DNA of 64,000 nt, taken from IMG/VR virus record IMGVR_UViG_3300028832_000095, positions 64,001 through 128,000 of that record; one strand, written 5' to 3'. Below the pieces are notes generated by a model. The model had not been told where the DNA came from. It was given only the letters and a program-made list of their open reading frames with translations, and did no database searches. Within the stretch, counting starts at the first letter, position 1. Each line of letters begins with the position of its first letter. Source of the DNA: a virus (Duplodnaviria > Caudoviricetes). Position numbers and translations under genes: made by a program. Positions 5,670-54,657 of this stretch are shown piece after piece.

Positions 5670-5843
5670 ATGCATCAGGATAATAGAGACTACTTCGACT
5701 CCAAAACTTATAAAGTGGATAACATAAAGAGTGAATTAATTTCCTTATCCTACGATCTTGAGGAACATGGTTTTGTCCGTAAAGCCAAAAGTCTCAGAAC
5801 TATCGTAGAGAAGTTGGAACAGTGGGAACATACAAAAAAGTGA
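5670..5843 (+). CDS. small hypothetical protein (57 aa, not in ORF track)
   Basis: GAGGAGG RBS, MHQDNRDYF..EHTKK, behind a promoter. Confidence 0.65.
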   Translation: MHQDNRDYFDSKTYKVDNIKSELISLSYDLEEHGFVRKAKSLRTIVEKLEQWEHTKK

Positions 5844-5906
5844 TGTGTGGTCTTTTTGTAGATTGTTTTGTGTAACAAATAGAAATAAAAAAATTTCAAA
5901 AACTAC

Positions 5907-5935
5907 TTGACAAAAATGAAATAATATGTTATAAT
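5907..5935 (+). promoter_or_regulatory. sigma-A promoter of tRNA operon
   Basis: Consensus TTGACA-N17-TATAAT with extended -10. Confidence 0.9.
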
Positions 5936-6054
5936 ACAATTACACTAAGATGTGAATTGTACTTCTTATAGGGTATGGAGAGGGAAGAAAAAACCTTAAC
6001 ACTCAGGTTTTTCTAAATCATATGTTTGGATTTAGTTTTTTGAGAGTGTATTGA

Positions 6055-6127
6055 GTACCAGTAGCTCAGTTGGTAGAGCATATCCCTTTTAAGGATAGGG
6101 TCAAGGGTTCAAACCCCTTCTGGTACA
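6055..6127 (+). tRNA. tRNA-Lys(UUU)
   Basis: Cloverleaf GTACCAG/CTGGTAC; anticodon loop CTTTTAA. Confidence 0.95.
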
Positions 6128-6134
6128 TTTTGAT

Positions 6135-6222
6135 GGATCCTTAGCTCAACAGGTTAGAGCCAGCGTCTTATAAACACTAGGCCCTTACAAGGTATATCTG
6201 GGTTCGAGTCCCAGAGGATCCA
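6135..6222 (+). tRNA. tRNA-Ile(UAU) with long variable arm
   Basis: GGATCCT/AGGATCC; loop CTTATAA; 19-nt variable region with CCTT/AAGG stem. Confidence 0.85.
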
Positions 6223-6229
6223 CTCAAAT

Positions 6230-6302
6230 TACTCCGTGGTGAAGTGGTAAACACATACGGCTTTGACCCGTACATTCGTTGGTTCAAATCCAACCGGAGT
6301 AA
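6230..6302 (+). tRNA. tRNA-Gln(UUG)
   Basis: TACTCCG/CGGAGTA; loop CTTTGAC. Confidence 0.95.
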
Positions 6303-6309
6303 TTCTTTT

Positions 6310-6384
6310 CGGAATGTAGATCAGTTTGGCTAGATCGCCACATTTGGGATGTGGAAGTCGCAGGTTCAAATCCTGTCATTCCGA
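6310..6384 (+). tRNA. tRNA-Pro(UGG)
   Basis: CGGAATG/CATTCCG; loop TTTGGGA. Confidence 0.95.
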
Positions 6385-6385
6385 T

Positions 6386-6528
6386 TATGTAATATAAGTG
6401 CTCCGGTTTTATACTACCTTGACGCTAGATAGAGGTGGAGGAAGGTGTAACAGAGTTACTTAAAGCTATTGCCTTTGAAAATCCAAGCAGGAGTTAAATG
6501 GAGTTTGATGAACAGCTTATATTATATA
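6386..6528 (+). ncRNA. putative structured spacer RNA
   Basis: 14-bp closing stem (2 G-U) filling the Pro-Leu spacer, internal hairpins. Confidence 0.5.
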
Positions 6529-6529
6529 T

Positions 6530-6615
6530 GCTACTGTGATGGAATGGCAGACATGAAAGACTTAAAATCTTTTGCCGGATACGGTGTGCGGGTTCAAGTC
6601 CCGCCAGTAGCACCA
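6530..6615 (+). tRNA. tRNA-Leu(UAA)
   Basis: GCTACTG/CAGTAGC; loop CTTAAAA; long V-arm; encoded CCA. Confidence 0.95.
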
Positions 6616-6685
6616 ATCCTCAAATTGTTGAGGATTATGTCATTTTCGTTTTGTTGTCTCCTTTTTTACTAATCTTATCTTTTTA

Positions 6686-6874
6686 TTGTGGGAAAGTCAG
6701 CAGTACAAGAAACTATGTTTTAAAAAGAGTGCATTCTTCTTTTACATAGTTTATGATTTCTCCTGTTTCCGGATCAATCATACTCTTGTAAATTGAATAT
6801 TTATAAGTCGGATTTCCTGTCTCCATTAAAATCTATTGATTTTTAATATTCACGAAATACTGACTTTCCCGCAA
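6686..6874 (+). ncRNA. putative multibranch ncRNA with C/U-rich loops
   Basis: 15-bp closing stem TTGTGGGAAAGTCAG/CTGACTTTCCCGCAA enclosing nested helices. Confidence 0.6.
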
Positions 6875-6890
6875 ACCTTATTTTCAGAAA

Positions 6891-7316
6891 GTGGTGTTGA
6901 AAGTGATACAACAAGAATCGTTACAAATTCCATGTGAAGGAATATTTTGGGTAATAGATAATTGCTTAGTCTATTTTGCAGATAAGGTAAATCCAAAAGA
7001 TCCTTATGATTCAACAGATCTTCTACATAAAGATACATGGAGAGAAATAAAAGACGAATATCTTGTAGACGGAAAACAGGTTTCCTTTGATTATTTTCCT
7101 CGTGGAAGAGTTGAAACATTAGTAATTCAAGATACTGACGGAACCTTAGATCACTATGAAGCGACTATATATTTAGATAAATGTATCAACAATAAAGAAT
7201 TGATCTCGGAGGTTATAGATACGTTTAGACTATACCTTCCAAATGTGAAGGTTGAAAATGGAGGTCAGTTATTTATAGATGGTAGTCACTATACTTGTAA
7301 TAAGTGTAGAAAATGA
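6891..7316 (+). CDS. hypothetical protein, paralog of 46389..46814
   Basis: GIFW..H..W..Y(F/Y)PRGRVE..DGS(D)HY.C shared. Confidence 0.75.
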   Translation: MVLKVIQQESLQIPCEGIFWVIDNCLVYFADKVNPKDPYDSTDLLHKDTWREIKDEYLVDGKQVSFDYFPRGRVETLVIQDTDGTLDHYEATIYLDKCINNKELISEVIDTFRLYLPNVKVENGGQLFIDGSHYTCNKCRK

Positions 7317-7319
7317 TAG

Positions 7320-7437
7320 GGAATCTTCGTTTAAAAGTGATTAGCAACCAAAAAGAAAGACTGAATTATCAGTTTAGTTAATCCGAAGACAGTTCCTGAT
7401 CAGAACTATGTAAGGTACAAACTTACAGATTCCACCA
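7320..7437 (+). ncRNA. tRNA-like RNA with acceptor stem, T-like arm and CCA end
   Basis: GGAATCT/AGATTCC-A-CCA; GTAAG-GTACAAA-CTTAC arm; no canonical D arm. Confidence 0.6.
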
Positions 7438-7443
7438 ATATTT

Positions 7444-7516
7444 GCCGTGGTAGCATAAATGGATATGCAACATCCTTCTAAGATGTCAGATACGGGTTCG
7501 AGTCCTGTCCACGGTA
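7444..7516 (+). tRNA. tRNA-Arg(UCU)
   Basis: GCCGTGG/CCACGGT; loop CTTCTAA. Confidence 0.95.
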
Positions 7517-7522
7517 TGTTAT

Positions 7523-7676
7523 GTAGGAGTGGCGCAAGAGGTAAGACACACCGGATATAGAATCCGGTGGAAGAATTAAACATTGGTGAGTTCGACTATA
7601 ACCTAGGATGATGTCAGAACAAAATGTCCCTTGTTTATGATATCCTGTGTAGGTTCGAATCCTACCTCCTACACCA
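7523..7676 (+). tRNA. tRNA-Leu(UAG)-like RNA with 81-nt variable-arm insertion
   Basis: GTAGGAG/CTCCTAC-A-CCA; CCGGA-TATAGAA-TCCGG; GTAGG-TTCGAAT-CCTAC. Confidence 0.75.
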
Positions 7677-7680
7677 ATAA

Positions 7681-7798
7681 GTCCAGACCCAAACTCCGTA
7701 GAACAATATGGGGTTTAAACGGGGAAAAATAAGTGATTAGCTTATGGAGAAAGGTGGACGCACTTGATGACGGTTTGCAAGGGCTTTACGTCATCCAC
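7681..7798 (+). ncRNA. putative structured spacer RNA
   Basis: GTCCA/TGGAC enclosing two hairpins, then GATGACG/CGTCATC hairpin. Confidence 0.4.
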
Positions 7799-7804
7799 AA
7801 ATAT

Positions 7805-7877
7805 TCCCTGTTAGATCAATCGGTAGATCAACTGACTGTTAATCAGTGGGTTGCTGGTTCAAGTCCAGCACAGGGAG
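7805..7877 (+). tRNA. tRNA-Asn(GUU)
   Basis: TCCCTGT/ACAGGGA; loop CTGTTAA. Confidence 0.95.
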
Positions 7878-7881
7878 TTCA

Positions 7882-8092
7882 GATAAGAGTGTTTAGGTTT
7901 GTTGATTTAGACGTTCATTCTTATCACCTGTAAAAGTATCTTTTGGTTTTTCGGTTTGCGTTTCCATTGGTAGCCATGCAGGTGCCTCCTTTCTTAAAAA
8001 TCAACTGAGGAAACAACACCTTTGGTGAATGGTGTGAAATACACCAGGCTCTGTGAAAACATTTACCTCACTTTCTGTTTTCACAGAGCTTT
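7882..8092 (+). ncRNA. structured trailer of tRNA operon with anti-SD elements
   Basis: GATAAGAGTG/CATTCTTATC, CACCTGTA/TGCAGGTG, CCTCCTTTCTT, 14-bp terminal hairpin. Confidence 0.45.
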
Positions 8093-8126
8093 CCTAAATT
8101 ATATCAATATTTCGGAGATGATAGAT

Positions 8127-8615
8127 ATGCGTGAAGATCTTATTCTAAGACTTAATGATAACATAGAATATTTAGAGGAATTAAAAAAGGTGTTACAGGA
8201 ATCTAAACCATCTAATATCGTTTTAGATTATTATGAAACATCTTATGTCGATACAATTGCAGATCACATCTACAAACCTAGGGCAGTATTTGATATACCA
8301 GAACCTTGTGAGAAGTGTAATGGAACAGGCGTTATTCAAGTATCTTCCGATAAAGATATTCACTATAAAATGTGTGATTGTTTCTATTCAACAAGGAAGT
8401 ATGTTGTAGAACCCCTTGCAGTAAGATCCATTGTAGATGCCGAAACACCTTATTATATGTGTTTTGACGGACTTGATATTATTTGTATTCCAATTCAAAG
8501 CGTAAAGAATTCTTTTTGTGTTGAAGATGTATATAATGAATATTATTATAAGAATAAAGAGGACTGTGAGAAAGCCTGTGATTGCTTGAATGGGGGTTGT
8601 ATAAATGACAAATAA
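8127..8615 (+). CDS. hypothetical protein with DnaJ-like Cys motif
   Basis: CEKCNGTG; start moved to ATG behind GGAG. Confidence 0.6.
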   Translation: MREDLILRLNDNIEYLEELKKVLQESKPSNIVLDYYETSYVDTIADHIYKPRAVFDIPEPCEKCNGTGVIQVSSDKDIHYKMCDCFYSTRKYVVEPLAVRSIVDAETPYYMCFDGLDIICIPIQSVKNSFCVEDVYNEYYYKNKEDCEKACDCLNGGCINDK

Positions 8616-8946
8616 TAAAAACTCAACACGTTATTATAGTGACAGACATGAAAAAAGAACTGCTAAGAATATCGGCGCAAAGGTTCAAACAAGCAGCGGA
8701 TCAAGTTCTTTTCTAAAAGGTGATGTTATTTCTGCAAAATGTCTTATCGAGTGTAAAACAAGCACATCCGAGAAGAAATCATTTTCAATCAAAAAAGAAT
8801 GGTTGGAGAAGTTGGAAGAACAGTGTTTTGCAATGGGAAAGAAACATCCGATATTAGTGTTTGACTTTGGTGACGGTAATAATTACTACATTCTAAACGA
8901 ACAGATGATAAGGAAGTTTGTTGAATTTTTAGATGGTGAAGAATAA
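8605..8946 (+). CDS. small PD-(D/E)xK nuclease (Hjc/resolvase-like)
   Basis: E..SGS..KGDV..LIECK. Confidence 0.65.
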   Translation: MTNNKNSTRYYSDRHEKRTAKNIGAKVQTSSGSSSFLKGDVISAKCLIECKTSTSEKKSFSIKKEWLEKLEEQCFAMGKKHPILVFDFGDGNNYYILNEQMIRKFVEFLDGEE

Positions 8947-8952
8947 GAAAAT

Positions 8953-9031
8953 AAACCTTGCTAATTTTTAGCAAGGTTTTTCATTTATTTTTTATAAAAC
9001 ACTTGACTTTTTTGTGTAAATGTGTTATACT
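8953..9031 (+). promoter_or_regulatory. terminator + sigma-A promoter
   Basis: AAACCTTGCTA/TAGCAAGGTTT; TTGACT(9003)-N17-TATACT. Confidence 0.8.
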
Positions 9032-9071: not shown

Positions 9072-11309
9072 ATGGAAACATTGGCAGTAAAGTATAGACC
9101 TAAGACATTTGATGATATGGTAGAACAAAGTGTTGTAAAAGACATTTTGATGAATCATATTAAGGAGAAGAAAGTAAGAAATGGTTATCTGTTTAGCGGA
9201 AGCGCTGGCTGCGGAAAAGCACAACCTTTGTATAGCAAGGTACTAACTCCTAAAGGTTACATTGCTATGGGTGAGGTTTCTGAAGGAACAGAAGTTATAA
9301 CACATACGGGATCAGTTGCATCCGTTTCGGAAGTATTTCCACAGGGAGAACGTGACATTTATGAGATACAGTTTAGTGATAGAACAAGTATTCGTGTGGC
9401 AGATAATCACCTAAATGTTGTATATAGGTACAATCAAAATAAGAAAATGAGAGAAGATTTTGTATTAACAACAATGGAGCTTATAGAACTATTAAAAAAA
9501 TCTAAAGATAAGATTAGAGTTGACCTTCCTGTGGTTGACTTTGATAAGACGGATGTTCCAATTGATCCATATCTATTAGGTTGCTTAATAGGTGACGGAT
9601 CACTCCATAATAATTTTGGTTTTTCTAATTCAGAAAAAGATGTTATTGATAAAGTATCCGGTATAGTTAGTAAGTATGATTGTTGCTTAGTACACAAATC
9701 TGGTTGTGATTATGCTATAAGTAGAACAACAGATTCTTTTAAAAATTACTATGTTTTTGAAGGAATTACTTATAAAGGACCTTATAAATTGATTGATAGA
9801 CTTGTTGAATTGGGTTATCCGAAATTTGATTCTGAAACAATTTTACAATTATCTTGCAATAAGGCGAAGATTATAGTTTCTAGGTATCCTGAACTCATCG
9901 GTAAAATAACCAAGATAACCAATGAAAATTATAATCAGCAAAATAAACTTTTAACACTCATAAAGAATATGGGTCTTGACGTTGGATCTAAGGACAAATT
10001 TATACCGAAAGAATATCTTATAAATGATGCCAATACAAGACTTCAAATTTTACGAGGTCTTTATGATACCGATGGATATACATCGTCTGGTGGGGAAACA
10101 AGTTTCTCCACATCTAGTAAAAAACTGTCCGATGATTTTGCTTTTTTAGTTAGATCTTTGGGTTGTCGTGATACGGTTATTGTTAAAAAATGTGGATACA
10201 GAAATCCAAATGGTGATTATGTAGAGTGTAGCAATAGTTATGAGCACTATATTAAATTTCCAAATAATTTAGTATATTGTTCTTCTGAAAAACATTTAGC
10301 TAGACGTAAAGAAAGACAACACGATCCAATCAAGAGTATTGTAGATATTAAATATGTAGGAAAAGAATTTTGTCAGTGTATTTATGTAGATCATGAAGAT
10401 CATACATACATTTCGGATGATTTTATTCCTACACATAATACAACCTCGGCACGTTGTTTCGCAAAGAGTCTTAATAGTTCTATAACAGAGCTTGACGCAG
10501 CTTCCCATAGTAGTGTGGATGATGTAAGGGATCTTATTAAAGATTCAAGACTGAAACCGATGGGAACTGATTATAGAGTATACATCATAGATGAAGCGCA
10601 TTCGCTTAGTAATCAGGCTTGGCAAGCTCTACTCAAGACATTGGAAGAGCCAACACCAACAAGCATTTTTATTTTTGCTACAACAGATCCTCAAAAAATT
10701 CCAAATACAATTTTATCCAGAATTCAAAGGTATAACTTCAAAAGAATTTCACATAAAGGAATTGTAAACAGATTAAAATACATACTTGATTCTGAAAATA
10801 AGAATGGTTGTAACTATACATATACCGAAGATGCCATTGATTATATCGCAAAATTATCTGAGGGTGGTATGAGAGATTCCATAACACTTATGGAGAAGTC
10901 ATTAGGTTATTCTGATAATCTTACAATGGAATCTGTAACAAAGGCTCTCGGAACTGTTGACTATGAAACAATGTTCACACTCACGGACAGCATTTATAAT
11001 ATGGACAGAAAATGTGTTATTTCGTGTATTGAGGAAACACATAGGGAAGGTCTTGATCTAAAACAGTTTATCAAGAATTATAGCTTTTTTGTTCTTGACC
11101 TTTGTAAATATGATGTATTTAGGTCTTTTGAGTATCTTCAGATGCCGAATACATATGAAGATAGGATGAAGAAGTATACACCAGATCACTATAAGTTCTT
11201 TACAGACTTACTCAATACAGTAATGCAACTCAATACAGATATTAAATGGGAATCTACTCCGAAGCCACTTATTGAATCAACACTTGTTCTTCTTTGTTCG
11301 GAGGGGTGA
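9072..11309 (+). CDS. dnaX: DNA polymerase III gamma/tau clamp-loader subunit, intein-containing
   Basis: LAVKYRPKTF, GCGK|TT, ELDAAS, IIDEAH, LLKTLEEP, TILSR, GGMRD. Confidence 0.93.
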   Translation: METLAVKYRPKTFDDMVEQSVVKDILMNHIKEKKVRNGYLFSGSAGCGKAQPLYSKVLTPKGYIAMGEVSEGTEVITHTGSVASVSEVFPQGERDIYEIQFSDRTSIRVADNHLNVVYRYNQNKKMREDFVLTTMELIELLKKSKDKIRVDLPVVDFDKTDVPIDPYLLGCLIGDGSLHNNFGFSNSEKDVIDKVSGIVSKYDCCLVHKSGCDYAISRTTDSFKNYYVFEGITYKGPYKLIDRLVELGYPKFDSETILQLSCNKAKIIVSRYPELIGKITKITNENYNQQNKLLTLIKNMGLDVGSKDKFIPKEYLINDANTRLQILRGLYDTDGYTSSGGETSFSTSSKKLSDDFAFLVRSLGCRDTVIVKKCGYRNPNGDYVECSNSYEHYIKFPNNLVYCSSEKHLARRKERQHDPIKSIVDIKYVGKEFCQCIYVDHEDHTYISDDFIPTHNTTSARCFAKSLNSSITELDAASHSSVDDVRDLIKDSRLKPMGTDYRVYIIDEAHSLSNQAWQALLKTLEEPTPTSIFIFATTDPQKIPNTILSRIQRYNFKRISHKGIVNRLKYILDSENKNGCNYTYTEDAIDYIAKLSEGGMRDSITLMEKSLGYSDNLTMESVTKALGTVDYETMFTLTDSIYNMDRKCVISCIEETHREGLDLKQFIKNYSFFVLDLCKYDVFRSFEYLQMPNTYEDRMKKYTPDHYKFFTDLLNTVMQLNTDIKWESTPKPLIESTLVLLCSEG
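9219..10439 (+). mobile_element. Ala-starting (class 3-type) intein with LAGLIDADG endonuclease
   Basis: AQPLYSKVLTP..CQCIYV..IPTHN/T; LLGCLIGDG and LRGLYDTDG; 407 aa inside the P-loop. Confidence 0.9.
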
Positions 11310-51138: not shown

Positions 51139-54100
51139 ATGTATCAAATTAAGAAACGAAGCGGAGAGTTAGAACTATTTGAACTATCAAAAATCAAGAC
51201 AGCAATAAAAAGGACATTTGATTCTTGTAATAGAAATTATCAAGAGTCTATTATAGAAACAATATCAATCAAATCAGTGGCAGATGCAGAAACAAAGATA
51301 AAGGATAATGTTCTCAATGTAGAAGATATACAAGACAGTGTAGAAAAAGTCTTAATGACATATGGATATGAAGATGTAGCAAAAGCATATATTCTATATA
51401 GAAAACAACATGAAAAAGCAAGGAATGCTAAAGAGACATTATTGAATTATAAGAAAACTATCGAAAGTTATAAGAACAGAGATGACTGGCGTGTAAAAGA
51501 AAACTCTACTGTCACCTATTCTCTTGGAGGTCTTATTCTAAATAATAGTGGAGCTATGACAGCTAACTATTGGCTTTTTGAAATATATGATGATGAAATT
51601 GGAAATGCTCATAGAAATTGTGAAATGCACATACATGATCTTTCTTTTCTATCTGCTTATTGTGCCGGATGGTCACTTAAACAACTAATACAAGAAGGAT
51701 TAGGTGGAGTACCTGGAAAAATCAGTTCAGATCCGGCATCTCACTTATCTACATTATGTAATCAAATGGTGAATTTTATAGGTATACTCCAAAATGAATG
51801 GGCAGGAGCACAAGCATTTTCAAGTGTGGATACATATTTAGCACCTTTTGTAAAAGTAGATAATCTTTCTTATAAAGAAGTAAAGCAGTGCATCCAGTCT
51901 CTTGTGTTTGGTCTTAATACTCCTTCAAGATGGGGATCACAATCACCTTTTAGTAATTTTACCATGGATTGGACAGTTCCGGATGATCTTGCAGAACTTA
52001 ATTGTATCGTAGGAGGTAAAGAGTTAGACTTCCGTTATAAAGACTGTAAACGTGAAATGGATATGGTAAATAAAGCATTTATGGAAGTTATGATGGAAGG
52101 TGATGCAAACGGTAGAGGTTTTCAATACCCCATACCGACTTACTCAATAACAAAAGAATTCGATTGGGATCCTGAAATCCCAAATAATAAACTTCTATTT
52201 GAAATGACAGCAAAGTATGGAATTCCATATTTTAGTAATTATGTTAATAGTGATATGTCCCCCTCAGATCTGAGAGCAATGTGTCTACATCCAGATACAG
52301 AAGTTAGATTTAAATACGACAAGGTTTTTGTAGAAACATCTATTCAGGATATGTATGATAATTACGATGTTAATAAGATTCAAATCCTAACAAAATTTGG
52401 TCTTAGACCTGTGAAAGAAGTACAACGATTTGGTTATACTGGAAAACTACTTAAATTTACATTTGATAATGGTACTACGTTAATCACCACACCTGATCAT
52501 GATCACGTTATTTATGAATTTACAGGTGTTCGTAGATATACCAACGGGGAAAAAGGTGGCTTCTTTGAATATGGAAAACAGCCTGAAGGTTGGTATCTAA
52601 AATCAAAATCACCTGTCATAGACGGTAAATGTCATCTTATTAAAAGAAAGGCTTCAGATCTTAAAGTAGGGGATTATTTATCTGTAAGATCTAAAAACGG
52701 TGGTGAATATCGTAGAGGAAAGACTTATGAAGAATCATACGGTGAGGATAAAGCAAAACAATTAAAACAAATGTTTAGCAAAGATCGAAAAGGTCGTGTT
52801 TCTTGGAATAAAGGTATACCAACTCCCTTAGAAGTAAGAAAGAAGATATCAGAAGCTGAAATTGGACATTATGTATCTGAGAAATGCCGTAAAGCATCCT
52901 CCGAAAGATGGAAAGGATCCAAAAACCCATATAATAAAAATGGCGTGAGGGTTTCTGGAAGAAGCGCTAGTATTAGTAACTATGAAATAGATTTTGAAAA
53001 AGAGTTATTAGCACTGGACACAGAATTTGTAAAACAGTATCCAGTTTTAAATAATAACAAAACCTATATTTGTGATTTTTATATCCCAGAAAAAAATCTT
53101 ATTATAGAACTGGAAACTGATTATAGATATAGTGAGTGTTCTTATAATAACACTGAAAAAGTTTTTATATCCCACCTGAAAAACAAATATGACGATATCA
53201 TAAGTTCCGGTTATAATCTTTTAGTAATTAATCCAAAGATAGATAAATCTTCTTATAGATGCCATATAAATAATCATACTCAAATCATAAACATTGAATC
53301 CATTGATTATGATGGTTATGTGTATGATCTAGAAGTAAATTGTGATGACGTTGGTGGTGATACTACATTATATCATACTTTCTATGCTAATAATATCTTA
53401 ACTGGGAATTGCTGTAGATTGCGTTTAGATCTTCGTGAACTTAGACGTAAATCAGGAGGATATTTCGGTAGTGGGGAATCCACTGGAAGTATTGGAGTTG
53501 TAACATTAAACCTTCCAAGAATAGCATATACATCAAAAACAGAAGAAGAATTCTTTACTAAGCTAGATAAACTAATGGATATAGCGGCAAGATCATTAAA
53601 TATAAAAAGAACAGTTGTATCACAGTTATTAGAACAAGGATTATATCCCTATACAAAGAGATATCTAGGATCTTTTAATAATCACTTCTCTACAATTGGA
53701 ATTGTTGGTATGAATGAATGTTGCTTAAATGCTAATTGGATTGGTTATGATATCTCTACAAAGATTGGGTATGAATTTTCTAAGAAGGTTTTAGATCATA
53801 TAAGGGAACGACTTTCGGATTATCAAGAACAGTATGGTGATCTATTCAACCTTGAAGCAACACCTGCGGAAAGCACTTCATTTAGATTTGCAATGCATGA
53901 TAAGAAAGATTTTCCAAATATAATCACAGCCGGAGATAAAACAGATGGAGCACCTTATTATACAAATAGTTCTCATCTTCCAGTAGGTTATACAGATGAT
54001 ATTTTTGAAGCACTGGATCACCAAGACGATTTACAAACTAAATATACTTCTGGAACTGTATTTCATGCTTTCCTAGGAGAGAAACTTCCTTCTTGGCAAG

Positions 54101-54657
54101 CTGCTATGAATCTTACTAGAAAAATAGCAGATAATTATAGACTTCCTTATTTCACATTCTCTCCCACATATTCTATTTGTCAGGAACATGGATATCTAAC
54201 AGGGGAACAATGGAAATGTCCTCACTGTGGAAAAGATACAGAAGTATATAGCCGTGTTACAGGTTATTATCGTGCTGTTCAAAACTTCAATGATGGTAAA
54301 GCACATGAGTTTATGGATAGAAAAGAATATACAGATTTTTCCAGAGAATTTGCAACACCAGAGATAAACTATTCTGAAACAAAAGAAGTAAATACAGAAG
54401 AAGTAAAACTTGAAAGACCAATTCTCTTTACCACATCAACCTGTCCAAATTGTAAAATAGTAAAACAGATTCTTGAAGAACATGGATTTGTATATGATGT
54501 AGTAGTTGCAGATCAGGATATGGAAACTGCAAGAAAGTTCAATATCAATCAAGCACCAACTCTTGTTGTTCAAGATGAAGAAGGAAATCTAATTAAAGTA
54601 GCAAATGTATCTAATATAAAGAAGTTCCTTGAAGAAACAGAGGAATCAGAAGAATAA
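51139..54657 (+). CDS. nrdD: anaerobic ribonucleoside-triphosphate reductase (ATP cone, intein, C-terminal glutaredoxin-like domain)
   Basis: HIHDL, YCAGW, AGAQA, M|CCRL, EATPAES, YSRVTGYY, CPNC. Confidence 0.95.
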   Translation: MYQIKKRSGELELFELSKIKTAIKRTFDSCNRNYQESIIETISIKSVADAETKIKDNVLNVEDIQDSVEKVLMTYGYEDVAKAYILYRKQHEKARNAKETLLNYKKTIESYKNRDDWRVKENSTVTYSLGGLILNNSGAMTANYWLFEIYDDEIGNAHRNCEMHIHDLSFLSAYCAGWSLKQLIQEGLGGVPGKISSDPASHLSTLCNQMVNFIGILQNEWAGAQAFSSVDTYLAPFVKVDNLSYKEVKQCIQSLVFGLNTPSRWGSQSPFSNFTMDWTVPDDLAELNCIVGGKELDFRYKDCKREMDMVNKAFMEVMMEGDANGRGFQYPIPTYSITKEFDWDPEIPNNKLLFEMTAKYGIPYFSNYVNSDMSPSDLRAMCLHPDTEVRFKYDKVFVETSIQDMYDNYDVNKIQILTKFGLRPVKEVQRFGYTGKLLKFTFDNGTTLITTPDHDHVIYEFTGVRRYTNGEKGGFFEYGKQPEGWYLKSKSPVIDGKCHLIKRKASDLKVGDYLSVRSKNGGEYRRGKTYEESYGEDKAKQLKQMFSKDRKGRVSWNKGIPTPLEVRKKISEAEIGHYVSEKCRKASSERWKGSKNPYNKNGVRVSGRSASISNYEIDFEKELLALDTEFVKQYPVLNNNKTYICDFYIPEKNLIIELETDYRYSECSYNNTEKVFISHLKNKYDDIISSGYNLLVINPKIDKSSYRCHINNHTQIINIESIDYDGYVYDLEVNCDDVGGDTTLYHTFYANNILTGNCCRLRLDLRELRRKSGGYFGSGESTGSIGVVTLNLPRIAYTSKTEEEFFTKLDKLMDIAARSLNIKRTVVSQLLEQGLYPYTKRYLGSFNNHFSTIGIVGMNECCLNANWIGYDISTKIGYEFSKKVLDHIRERLSDYQEQYGDLFNLEATPAESTSFRFAMHDKKDFPNIITAGDKTDGAPYYTNSSHLPVGYTDDIFEALDHQDDLQTKYTSGTVFHAFLGEKLPSWQAAMNLTRKIADNYRLPYFTFSPTYSICQEHGYLTGEQWKCPHCGKDTEVYSRVTGYYRAVQNFNDGKAHEFMDRKEYTDFSREFATPEINYSETKEVNTEEVKLERPILFTTSTCPNCKIVKQILEEHGFVYDVVVADQDMETARKFNINQAPTLVVQDEEGNLIKVANVSNIKKFLEETEESEE
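52282..53409 (+). mobile_element. intein with NUMOD3-like motifs and Vsr/DUF559-like endonuclease
   Basis: CLHPDTEV..TTPDH..VYDLEV..FYANNILTGN/C; WNKG..RKKISE; CDFYIPEKNLIIEL. Confidence 0.88.

Follow-up and report, generated by a model that had tools for sequence, protein, structure and literature searches.

Evidence for conserved structured RNAs, two of them with decayed tRNA frames, in the spacers of a phage tRNA operon

Background

Phage tRNA clusters are usually read only as sets of tRNAs that supply codons or counter host defences. The tRNA operon studied here, which lies in a 64,000-nucleotide (nt) stretch of phage DNA (bases 64001-128000 of the 201,895-bp virus record IMGVR_UViG_3300028832_000095; hereafter the window), raises the question of what else such a cluster may encode. 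Besides seven canonical tRNAs and three open reading frames (ORFs; 6891-7316, 8127-8615 and 8605-8946), its transcription unit contains long non-coding gaps, and an original prediction from the sequence alone proposed that these gaps may encode folded small RNAs (sRNAs), released by tRNA processing, as a battery of translation silencers and tRNA mimics. We find that the gaps very probably encode real, conserved, plus-strand structured RNAs, belonging to families that appear undescribed. We favour a reading in which they are stable non-coding RNAs, some of them built on former tRNAs, of the kind known from phage T4; as silencers of ribosome-binding sites, at most one of them is a candidate.

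Results

Conserved plus-strand RNAs in the spacers

All five spacers in which base-paired elements had been predicted folded more stably on the plus strand than their dinucleotide shuffles, against which the z scores for both strands in Table 1 were computed. The elements in these spacers are called S1 to S5 below, in 5' to 3' order, and a sixth element is called T8. Relatives were sought with the ORF embedded in the array, whose family has 37 homologues at 46-69% identity. A total of 100 loci (designated by L numbers) was assembled from contigs with a homologue and from viral and metagenome contigs scanned with the family alignment. Closer loci share the order helix-turn-helix protein, tRNA array with embedded ORF, clamp loader; the tRNA content and order of the relatives' arrays are very different, and several contain HNH endonuclease genes. 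Four of the five predicted spacer elements, and T8 as well, recur in these related tRNA arrays with compensatory changes.

Compensatory pairs were found by MAFFT alignment with RNAalifold and by covariance models in S1, S3, S4 and S5, and compensatory changes were also seen in the insert stem of T8. As a control, pairing partners were shifted by 1-3 columns (slid alignments, below). The covarying helices of the five structural alignments contain 96 G.U cells versus 5 A.C cells, so the spacer RNAs are assigned to the plus strand, the strand proposed from the start. In Rfam searches of the window only tRNA reached its gathering score, and the spacer RNAs matched no family, barring a borderline tRNA match over 7523-7673. 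At E <= 10, region 5800-8300 gave tRNAs and chance-level matches such as U8 and YrlA over tRNAs. Among the best 150 of 160 Rfam matches in 19 related loci there were tRNAs and one RAGATH-18, the latter in a related tRNA array (L009:5591-5652; 54.1 bits vs a gathering score of 44.9).

These data bear on a null explanation in which the spacers contain nothing functional in its own right, only tRNA pseudogenes in decay and chance hairpins such as processing sites and terminators. The high turnover of the arrays, with their divergent tRNA content and HNH genes, would suit it, as would the degenerate D arm and anticodon loop of T8 and the orphan status of S2. Neutral decay, however, predicts neither compensatory changes nor invariant loops, and here many compensatory changes keep the helices at 60-80% sequence identity while unpaired motifs and apical loops are invariant. 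We consider this explanation very unlikely.

Table 1 Features of the tRNA operon and its spacers in window coordinates, with folding z scores
Feature	Position	Strand	z (+)	z (-)	Remarks
Promoter, sigma-70/sigma-A-type consensus	5907-5935	+			TTGACA, 17 nt, TATAAT, TG extension (extended -10); 12 of 12 matches; pattern match only
tRNA-Lys(UUU), tRNA-Ile(UAU), tRNA-Gln(UUG), tRNA-Pro(UGG)	6055-6385	+			No encoded CCA; ARAGORN, RF00005 55-74 bits
S1	6385-6529	+	-2.2	-2.2	144-nt RNA, long terminal stem; fills the tRNA-Pro to tRNA-Leu gap exactly; z for 6386-6529
tRNA-Leu(UAA)	6530-6615	+			CCA encoded; ARAGORN, Rfam
Terminator-like hairpin (weak)	6615-6636, U-rich tail to 6668	+			Tail holds tract GTCTCCTTTTTT (6656)
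S2, candidate element	6686-6874	ambiguous	-6.7	-6.4	189-nt multibranch fold, 14-bp closing stem; holds tracts 6759 and 6816
Embedded ORF, 141 amino acids (aa)	6891-7316	+			Conserved family; anchor for finding related loci
S3	7320-7437	+	-2.8	-1.35	tRNA-shaped, 118 nt, 7-bp acceptor stem, A73 and CCA encoded
tRNA-Arg(UCU)	7443-7517	+			No encoded CCA; ARAGORN, Rfam
T8	7523-7676	+			Apparent decayed tRNA-Leu(UAG), 154 nt, 81-nt insert in variable arm; absent from the spacers named in the original prediction
S4	7681-7798	+	-3.0	-0.2	Structured RNA, 118 nt; 3' hairpin with covarying 7-bp stem
tRNA-Asn(GUU)	7804-7878	+			No encoded CCA; ARAGORN, Rfam
S5, segment folded	7882-8092	+	-5.0	-2.35	
S5 5' domain	7879-7984	+			Hairpin H1 (~7882-7925) with apical motif GUUUGnnGAUUUAGA; stem P2 (~7926-7981) closing a variable region
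S5 CCUCCU, anti-Shine-Dalgarno-like	7985-7990	+			Invariant, predicted single-stranded, between the two domains
S5 3' domain, four-way junction	8004-8100	+			P3 (GGAA/UUCC-type), P3a, P3b, P3c
ORF, 162 aa, CxxCxGxG motif	8127-8615	+			Same transcription unit; overlaps next ORF
ORF, 113 aa, Holliday-junction-resolvase-like	8605-8946	+			Same transcription unit
Intrinsic-terminator-like hairpin, end of unit	8953-8979	+			Sole strong terminator-like site downstream of the promoter

The tRNA-shaped elements S3 and T8

That tRNA mimics would be found among the spacers was borne out by two elements, S3 and T8. ACCA is encoded in all S3 members and in both T8 copies; CCA is absent from six of the seven canonical window tRNAs and present in 45 of 137 tRNA genes over 13 loci.

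Homologues of S3 were detected by blastn in L001/L003, L012 and L037. RNAalifold, applied to a plain MAFFT alignment with three distinct sequences, gave a cloverleaf and 13 compensatory pairs out of 35. An acceptor stem of 7 bp is separated by 2 nt from a D stem of 4 bp; then come an anticodon-type stem of 4-5 bp, a variable loop of 2-3 nt, a T-type stem of 5 bp and, at the 3' end, A and CCA. Covariance model R1 added L006, L005 and L009, making seven distinct members, in which 99.6% of pair cells are standard (30-45% paired when slid) and 26 of 35 pairs have changed on both sides; this alignment is model-fitted and thus biased to the structure, and the unbiased alignment had already shown covariation. 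The D loop is replaced by an arm of 60-110 nt, composed of a 7-8-bp helix, an internal loop and a variable hairpin. Its internal loop contains an unpaired A-rich run, CAAAAAGAAA, whose invariance points to selection on the insert; GACCAAAAAGAAA is found there in most members and AACC in the window.

Cloverleaf geometry, together with the 23.6 bits that model R1 gives to tRNA-Thr of phage T4, argues for a tRNA ancestry of S3. The anticodon-type loop, CUGAUCA in four lineages on a stem that covaries, reads like that of tRNA-Ile(GAU) but has C37, and the T-type loops are never TPsiC-like (GUACAAA in the window, GUAAAGA or GGUAACGU elsewhere). Because of the non-TPsiC loop, the pyrimidine at 37 and the very short variable loop, decoding appears to have decayed; a functional decoder would have an anticodon loop of 7 nt with U33 and a purine at 37, and a canonical T loop. 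No match of S3 to the Rfam tRNA model RF00005 was obtained at E <= 10, and neither S3 nor T8 was called by ARAGORN, even with its intron search on. Judged by sequence, S3 has the features of an RNase P-type substrate, namely 7 + 5 bp and ACCA in all seven members, and six of the seven acceptor pairs covary. It is single-copy in its own genome.

RF00005 scores T8 (7523-7673) at 29.9 bits, just above its gathering score of 29; the acceptor stem is perfect and the T arm canonical, A73 and CCA are present, and the D stem is poor, with two mismatched pairs. This score and an alignment of the T8 5' half to canonical tRNA-Leu(UAG) genes of relatives point to a tRNA-Leu ancestry. The acceptor stem, T arm and ACCA would again suit RNase P. 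As a decoder T8 falls short, given its anticodon loop UAUAGAA with A at position 33 and the 6-nt loop AAGGGA of its orthologue in L003. That orthologue, 81% identical, is the sole T8 homologue found and has no RF00005 match at E <= 1. Of the first 46 nt of the insert, three differ between the two copies, two of them as a compensatory change within one pair; both copies have the same 16-nt apical loop, UAUAACCUAGGAUGAU, and the proximal insert is better conserved than the tRNA body. From this comparison T8 looks to be a tRNA-Leu derivative whose insert is more constrained than its decoding part.

Inserts also occur in good tRNA genes of the related arrays. Structured anticodon-loop inserts of 48-70 nt, a size far below that of group I introns, are present in L012:2317-2451, L037:1802-1943 and L042:6812-6951, genes that score 47-62 bits on RF00005. 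The L012 gene, with a 48-nt insert, is the orthologue of the uninterrupted window tRNA-Leu(UAA).

Such genes raise the alternative that the extra arms of S3 and T8 are intervening sequences, removed to leave a mature tRNA-Ile(GAU) and a mature tRNA-Leu(UAG). The interrupted tRNA-Leu of L012, the inserts of ~65 nt in the anticodon loops of other good tRNAs, and the retention of CUGAUCA in S3 would agree with it. We know of no bacterial or phage mechanism, however, for excising small inserts from a D loop or variable arm, and a family search of the phage genome found no RtcB. In T8 the anticodon loop has decayed and the insert is the best-conserved part, and S3 minus its insert would still have neither a canonical T loop nor a normal variable loop. 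Removal of the inserts thus seems quite unlikely, and we continue to regard S3 and T8 as former tRNAs that have acquired conserved modules.

Free-standing elements S1 and S4, and the orphan S2

S1 was found in full by covariance model R3 in the window, L008 and L005, in each of which its 3' terminus directly adjoins the following tRNA; L004 and L042 have variants with the closing stem and the conserved 3' motif AAAUGGAGUUUGAnGAACAGC. In the three full sequences 15 of 45 pairs are compensatory (MAFFT and RNAalifold), and the S1 data taken together give 19 of 45. In the slid control of S1, 93% of cells are paired in register vs 36-46% when slid. Homologues of S4 occur in L003 and L010. Eleven of the 19 pairs in its 3' half are compensatory, and the 7-bp stem has wholly changed around a conserved 16-nt loop, GUUUGCAAGGGCUUUA.

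S2 has the strongest fold energy of the spacers, with both strands folding equally well. No homologue was found in the 100 loci, in its own genome or by one exact-arm pattern scan of viral contigs (0 matches), so that its structure is a purely thermodynamic prediction. The position that it occupies, directly upstream of the embedded ORF, is often held by a tRNA gene in relatives.

Two sequence coincidences were noted among these elements. An 11-mer, AAGUGAUUAGC, is common to S3 (7338-7348) and S4 (7731-7741), and its GAUUAGC is also present in the anticodon-loop insert of L042. Conserved apical loops contain 6-nt palindromes, UGAUCA in S3 (7396-7402), CCUAGG in T8 (7600-7605) and UUGCAA in S4 (7769-7774). 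As evidence of kissing dimers these were set aside: the same property is seen in the canonical T loop, UUCGAA, and the pattern was noticed post hoc.

S5 and its invariant CCUCCU

Model R2 placed S5 in 11 loci, always in the order last tRNA, S5, next ORF, and as a single copy in its own genome. Within the 5' domain 7 of 18 pairs are compensatory, and invariant U.G and G.U pairs are present. The four-way junction of the 3' domain, obtained in 9 of 10 loci by independent minimum-free-energy folds, comprises P3, an invariant P3a (CACC-NNN-GGUG), a 7-bp P3b with an AAA loop and a P3c hairpin of 10-16 bp. RNAalifold on a plain MAFFT alignment of the junction finds 17 of 25 pairs compensatory, and 92% of cells are paired vs 30-46% when slid. 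Between the domains, CCUCCU is identical in all 11 aligned loci, and nine of ten independent minimum-free-energy folds of the downstream domain leave it unpaired. CAU precedes it by 7-11 nt in 8 of 10 loci, making the plus-strand RNA the complement of a generic Shine-Dalgarno (SD)-spacer-AUG.

The same pattern read on the other strand is AGGAGG followed 7-11 nt later by ATG, so that the CCTCC tracts could serve short genes on the minus strand, such as a 17-aa ORF at 7924-7977, as ribosome-binding sites. The peptides so encoded have 7-20 aa and no sequence relationship to one another, and an ATG is missing from two loci. All window genes are on the plus strand, promoter-like matches in the scanned region were no commoner than in shuffles, and the G.U pairs of the flanking helices fit the plus strand only. 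We give minus-strand genes almost no credence and treat CCUCCU as a motif of the plus-strand RNA.

No terminator follows S5, which lies within the 5' leader of the next ORF; action of CCUCCU in cis is therefore as likely as action in trans. The probable role of S5 is in translation, whether confined to its own downstream ORF or broader. One specific form of this would be a cis-acting leader, riboswitch-like or protein-binding, controlling translation of the ORF at 8127, in which the UUCC strand or CCUCCU alternately frees and sequesters the ribosome-binding site. It would account for the position of S5 directly upstream of an orthologous ORF in 11 of 11 loci, with neither terminator nor promoter between them. 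The 3' strand of P3, UUCC, is 11-25 nt upstream of the SD and can pair with either GGAA or the SD; in the full-length window fold, UUCC pairs with the SD region. On the other hand, CCUCCU is predicted to pair with the SD of the next ORF at a probability of ~0 in three of the four loci computed, ORFs that come next in L008 (orthology to the 162-aa ORF unchecked) follow an array that has no S5 match, and no ligand or binding protein can be named. A cis leader is a possibility that we hold tentatively, for S5 only.

Pyrimidine tracts and the case for silencing in trans

Unpaired C-rich motifs amid stable helices are the means by which RNAIII, RsaE/RoxS and LhrC pair with ribosome-binding sites. 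On this model, the original prediction treated the spacer RNAs as trans-acting silencers whose C/U-rich loops would pair with SD sequences of host or phage messages. The five pyrimidine tracts on which it drew (6656, 6759, 6816, 7985 and 8063) are all present, and CTCC is commoner than in shuffled sequence (7 occurrences in 1082 nt of spacer vs 2.2; P ~0.006), with a density of 6.5 per kb in spacers vs 1.2 per kb on the genome plus strand. Three of the seven occurrences are helix partners of GGAG. Placement of three tracts in hairpin loops was roughly right: in minimum-free-energy folds 6816 and 8063 are in loops and 6759 is half paired, and 6656 and 7985 are not in loops.

Only the 7985 tract of the five is kept in relatives. 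The 8063 tract occupies the P3c loop of S5, where the sequence is different in every relative, and 6759 and 6816 belong to the orphan S2. The 6656 tract is the tail of a terminator-like hairpin, and this hairpin with a 21-nt identical tail is conserved behind the orthologous tRNA-Leu in L012 and L037. No conserved unpaired C-rich motif is present in S1, S3, S4 or T8, whose CTCC pair with GGAG.

The five tracts and the A-rich loop of S3 were scanned for duplexes with 261 predicted phage translation starts. The best matches beat plain shuffles; that of the S2 loop at 6816 was with the start of gene 23104, and that of the 6656 tract with a gene outside the window (genome start 182655). Controls in which the CUCC (and CCAUG) cores were kept gave p values of 0.14 (S5), 0.025 (S2 loop) and 0.013 (6656 tract), which after several tests are not convincing, and no specific phage target stands out. 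A 14-nt complement between 6639-6652 and a gene start ~16 kb upstream was dismissed as a chance-level blast match (E 0.53).

A battery of silencers therefore reduces to at most one element, S5, given that four tracts are not conserved as such and that a clear specific target is lacking. In favour of trans silencing by S5 are the invariance of CCUCCU in 11 loci, its predicted unpaired state and the CAU upstream of it, to which the CTCC enrichment and the two lowest core-kept p values may be added for the tracts in general. S5 shares with the C-rich sRNAs of Firmicutes a predicted unpaired, invariant motif flanked by stable helices, but it differs in being an ORF leader with no terminator of its own, and hence part of the mRNA of the next ORF, in having a single motif and not several, and in showing no significant specific target among the 261 phage starts. 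We judge silencing in trans improbable as a general account of the spacers.

Release by tRNA processing

The operon can be read as a single transcription unit in which tRNAs, three ORFs and at least five structured RNAs would be carried on the same strand from one promoter to one terminator. That a single strong promoter serves the array agrees with the one consensus promoter before it (5907-5935) and the only strong terminator-like site after it (8953-8979).

Cleavage at the 5' end of a tRNA-type structure is the work of RNase P. The 3' side falls to RNase Z, which in Bacillus subtilis cuts immediately downstream of the discriminator if the precursor has no CCA and is blocked if it has one. 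The ends of the elements abut tRNA ends, which makes excision by tRNA processing plausible, and release of the spacers by this route is probable. RNase P cuts at the tRNA-type 5' ends and RNase Z cuts after the CCA-less tRNAs would together free the spacers as defined small RNAs protected by their structure. S1, S4 and the 5' end of S5 would be freed exactly at their closing helices, and S3 and T8 would be handled as tRNAs.

We therefore picture three sorts of product. S3 and T8 would be former tRNA genes that retain what processing enzymes recognise (a 7-bp acceptor stem stacked on a T-type arm, the discriminator A and CCA), whose decoding parts have decayed and from whose D loop (S3) or variable arm (T8) a conserved extra module has grown. 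S1 and S4 would be free-standing folded RNAs with ends abutting the neighbouring tRNAs, and S5 a two-domain leader, reaching from the last tRNA to the next ORF, that displays an unpaired CCUCCU. The tRNA frames may serve as scaffolds for processing and stability, presenting the conserved modules to a host or phage partner. We think it reasonably likely that this reading is correct as a whole, with the spacer RNAs as stable tRNA-mimic or tRNA-scaffolded non-coding RNAs of the T4 RNAC/RNAD kind, processing and scaffold role included, and not general blockers of ribosome-binding sites.

Several points weigh on the other side. Each sequence set is small, with 3 to 11 loci, and model-fitted alignments, which lean towards the model structure, underlie two of the pair counts. 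The T-like loop of S3 is non-canonical, and its recognition by RNase P is assumed. Family searches of the phage genome found no Ro/TROVE protein, RtcB or CCA-adding enzyme, and no partner protein is evident; the embedded ORF has no recognisable fold. S2, which has no homologues, may be something else entirely.

Discussion

The closest parallel is provided by RNAC and RNAD of phage T4 (species 1 and 2 stable RNAs), small stable RNAs from the tRNA region of a large lytic phage, where they adjoin tRNA-Arg and the segB homing endonuclease gene. Like them, the window RNAs are encoded amid phage tRNA genes and in the same orientation. RNAC has a canonical T arm close to its 3' end and to that extent resembles a tRNA, as do S3 and T8. 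The likeness is one of kind and not of family: with filters off, S3 model R1 scores the rnaC region at 4.3 bits (E 2.4), no detectable homology, and the folds of rnaC and rnaD differ from S3, which is a full cloverleaf with an expanded D loop; in T8 the expansion is in the variable arm of a tRNA-Leu frame. The host group probably differs as well, Firmicutes being suggested here by SD usage and G+C. The roles of RNAC and RNAD are still unknown (PMC3014915, PMC9697503), and more families of this kind widen the material for working out what such RNAs do.

Structured RNAs whose function is unknown, GOLLD and ROOL are often encoded close to tRNA genes and in phages or prophages, ROOL having first been seen in cow rumen metagenomes (PMC5737381); long non-coding RNAs adjoining tRNAs in phage K have been compared with them (PMC9241854). 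Those RNAs are very large and ornate (ROOL averages 581 nt), in contrast to the 100-220 nt of the elements here, and neither gave a gathering-score match in the window or a match among the best 150 of 160 in 19 related loci. A tRNA-like module is also found in the non-coding YrlA and other bacterial Y RNAs (RF02553), which occur in phages as well; one member is cut by RNase P and receives CCA (PMC4201824). The ends of YrlA form a Ro-binding stem, whereas here the ends form an acceptor stem, and its gene lies beside Ro60/Rsr, whereas the 201,895-bp record has no TROVE match. By eye, no GNCGAA motif is present at the S1 5' end, and the best RF02553 match, over two ordinary tRNAs, scores 22.1 bits vs a gathering score of 69.

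To our knowledge, no natural tRNA has been described with a 60-110-nt replacement of its D loop or an 81-nt variable arm. The tRNA frame does tolerate large variable-arm additions and can stabilise a foreign RNA module (PMC7609411, PMC7590224). S3 and T8 differ from the non-canonical tRNAs and engineered scaffolds in that their anticodon loops are not kept in decoding form, and they would represent a natural example of the tRNA-scaffold principle of RNA engineering. One operon appears to hold at least five RNA families with strong covariation and no Rfam match, including non-decoding tRNA frames with grafted modules. At 100-220 nt, the families are small, concrete targets for structure probing, pull-downs and deletion genetics. 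If it is true that CCUCCU of S5 acts on ribosome binding, it would offer a compact phage-encoded handle on translation initiation.

A bolder proposal, which we consider rather unlikely in its entirety, is that decayed tRNA genes serve this phage clade as natural scaffolds. Processing and stability would be secured by the acceptor/T half, and the working parts would be modules inserted in the D loop of S3, in the variable arm of T8 or, in relatives, in the anticodon loop, while S5 would mimic the 16S rRNA 3' end and compete for SD sequences. As part of it, the RNAs could possibly be decoys for host defence nucleases that target tRNAs or for other tRNA-binding factors, or could possibly self-associate through the palindromic apical loops UGAUCA, CCUAGG and UUGCAA.

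Genomic context and neighbouring genes

The phage is about 200 kb and of gut or rumen type; the record has an estimated completeness of 84%. Window G+C is ~33%, and every long ORF is on the plus strand. SD usage and this G+C suggest a host among the Firmicutes. Blastn of 5900-8200 against 50,697 phage records returned tRNA matches only, and tblastn of the embedded 141-aa ORF against the same records gave no match, so there is no close relative among deposited phage genomes.

ARAGORN and Rfam place the seven canonical tRNAs within 6055-7878 and find no others in the genome. The tRNA-Ile(UAU) gene (6135-6223; also L001:2584-2672 and L003:705-793) measures 89 nt; its anticodon stem contains a C-A mismatch, and its variable arm has ~20 nt, such a class-II-like arm being unusual for a tRNA-Ile. 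The region upstream of the array, 5883-5955, is one copy of a repeated module of 50-75 nt (71-86% identity) with ~25 more copies across the 202-kb genome, which resembles a set of strong promoters of early type whose flanks are conserved. In the 118-nt leader from the promoter to the first tRNA (5936-6054), an AU-rich hairpin followed by U6 (~6016-6044) forms a terminator-like signal directly before tRNA-Lys.

Members of the embedded ORF family, which is present in the window and in more than 100 metagenomic loci, are 135-145 aa long, with invariant Pro-Arg-Gly-Arg and His-Tyr-x-Cys-x-x-Cys motifs. The embedded ORF has no Pfam or PHROG match, and its AlphaFold model (predicted local distance difference test, pLDDT, 89.7) found no convincing match in the PDB (Foldseek best E 0.026; VIA-align wide best Z 4.4), nor did an ESM Atlas feature search give a usable one.

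The clamp-loader subunit downstream (9072-11309) contains LAGLIDADG/Hom_end homing-endonuclease domains, which suggests an intein; the genes of relatives are uninterrupted (~340 aa), and a search for related loci with this intein-bearing gene as query gave no relatives. The window NrdD is 65% identical to NrdD of an unannotated human-faecal phage contig. At 1172 aa (51139-54657), it matches relatives in two pieces, a pattern that suggests a second intein.

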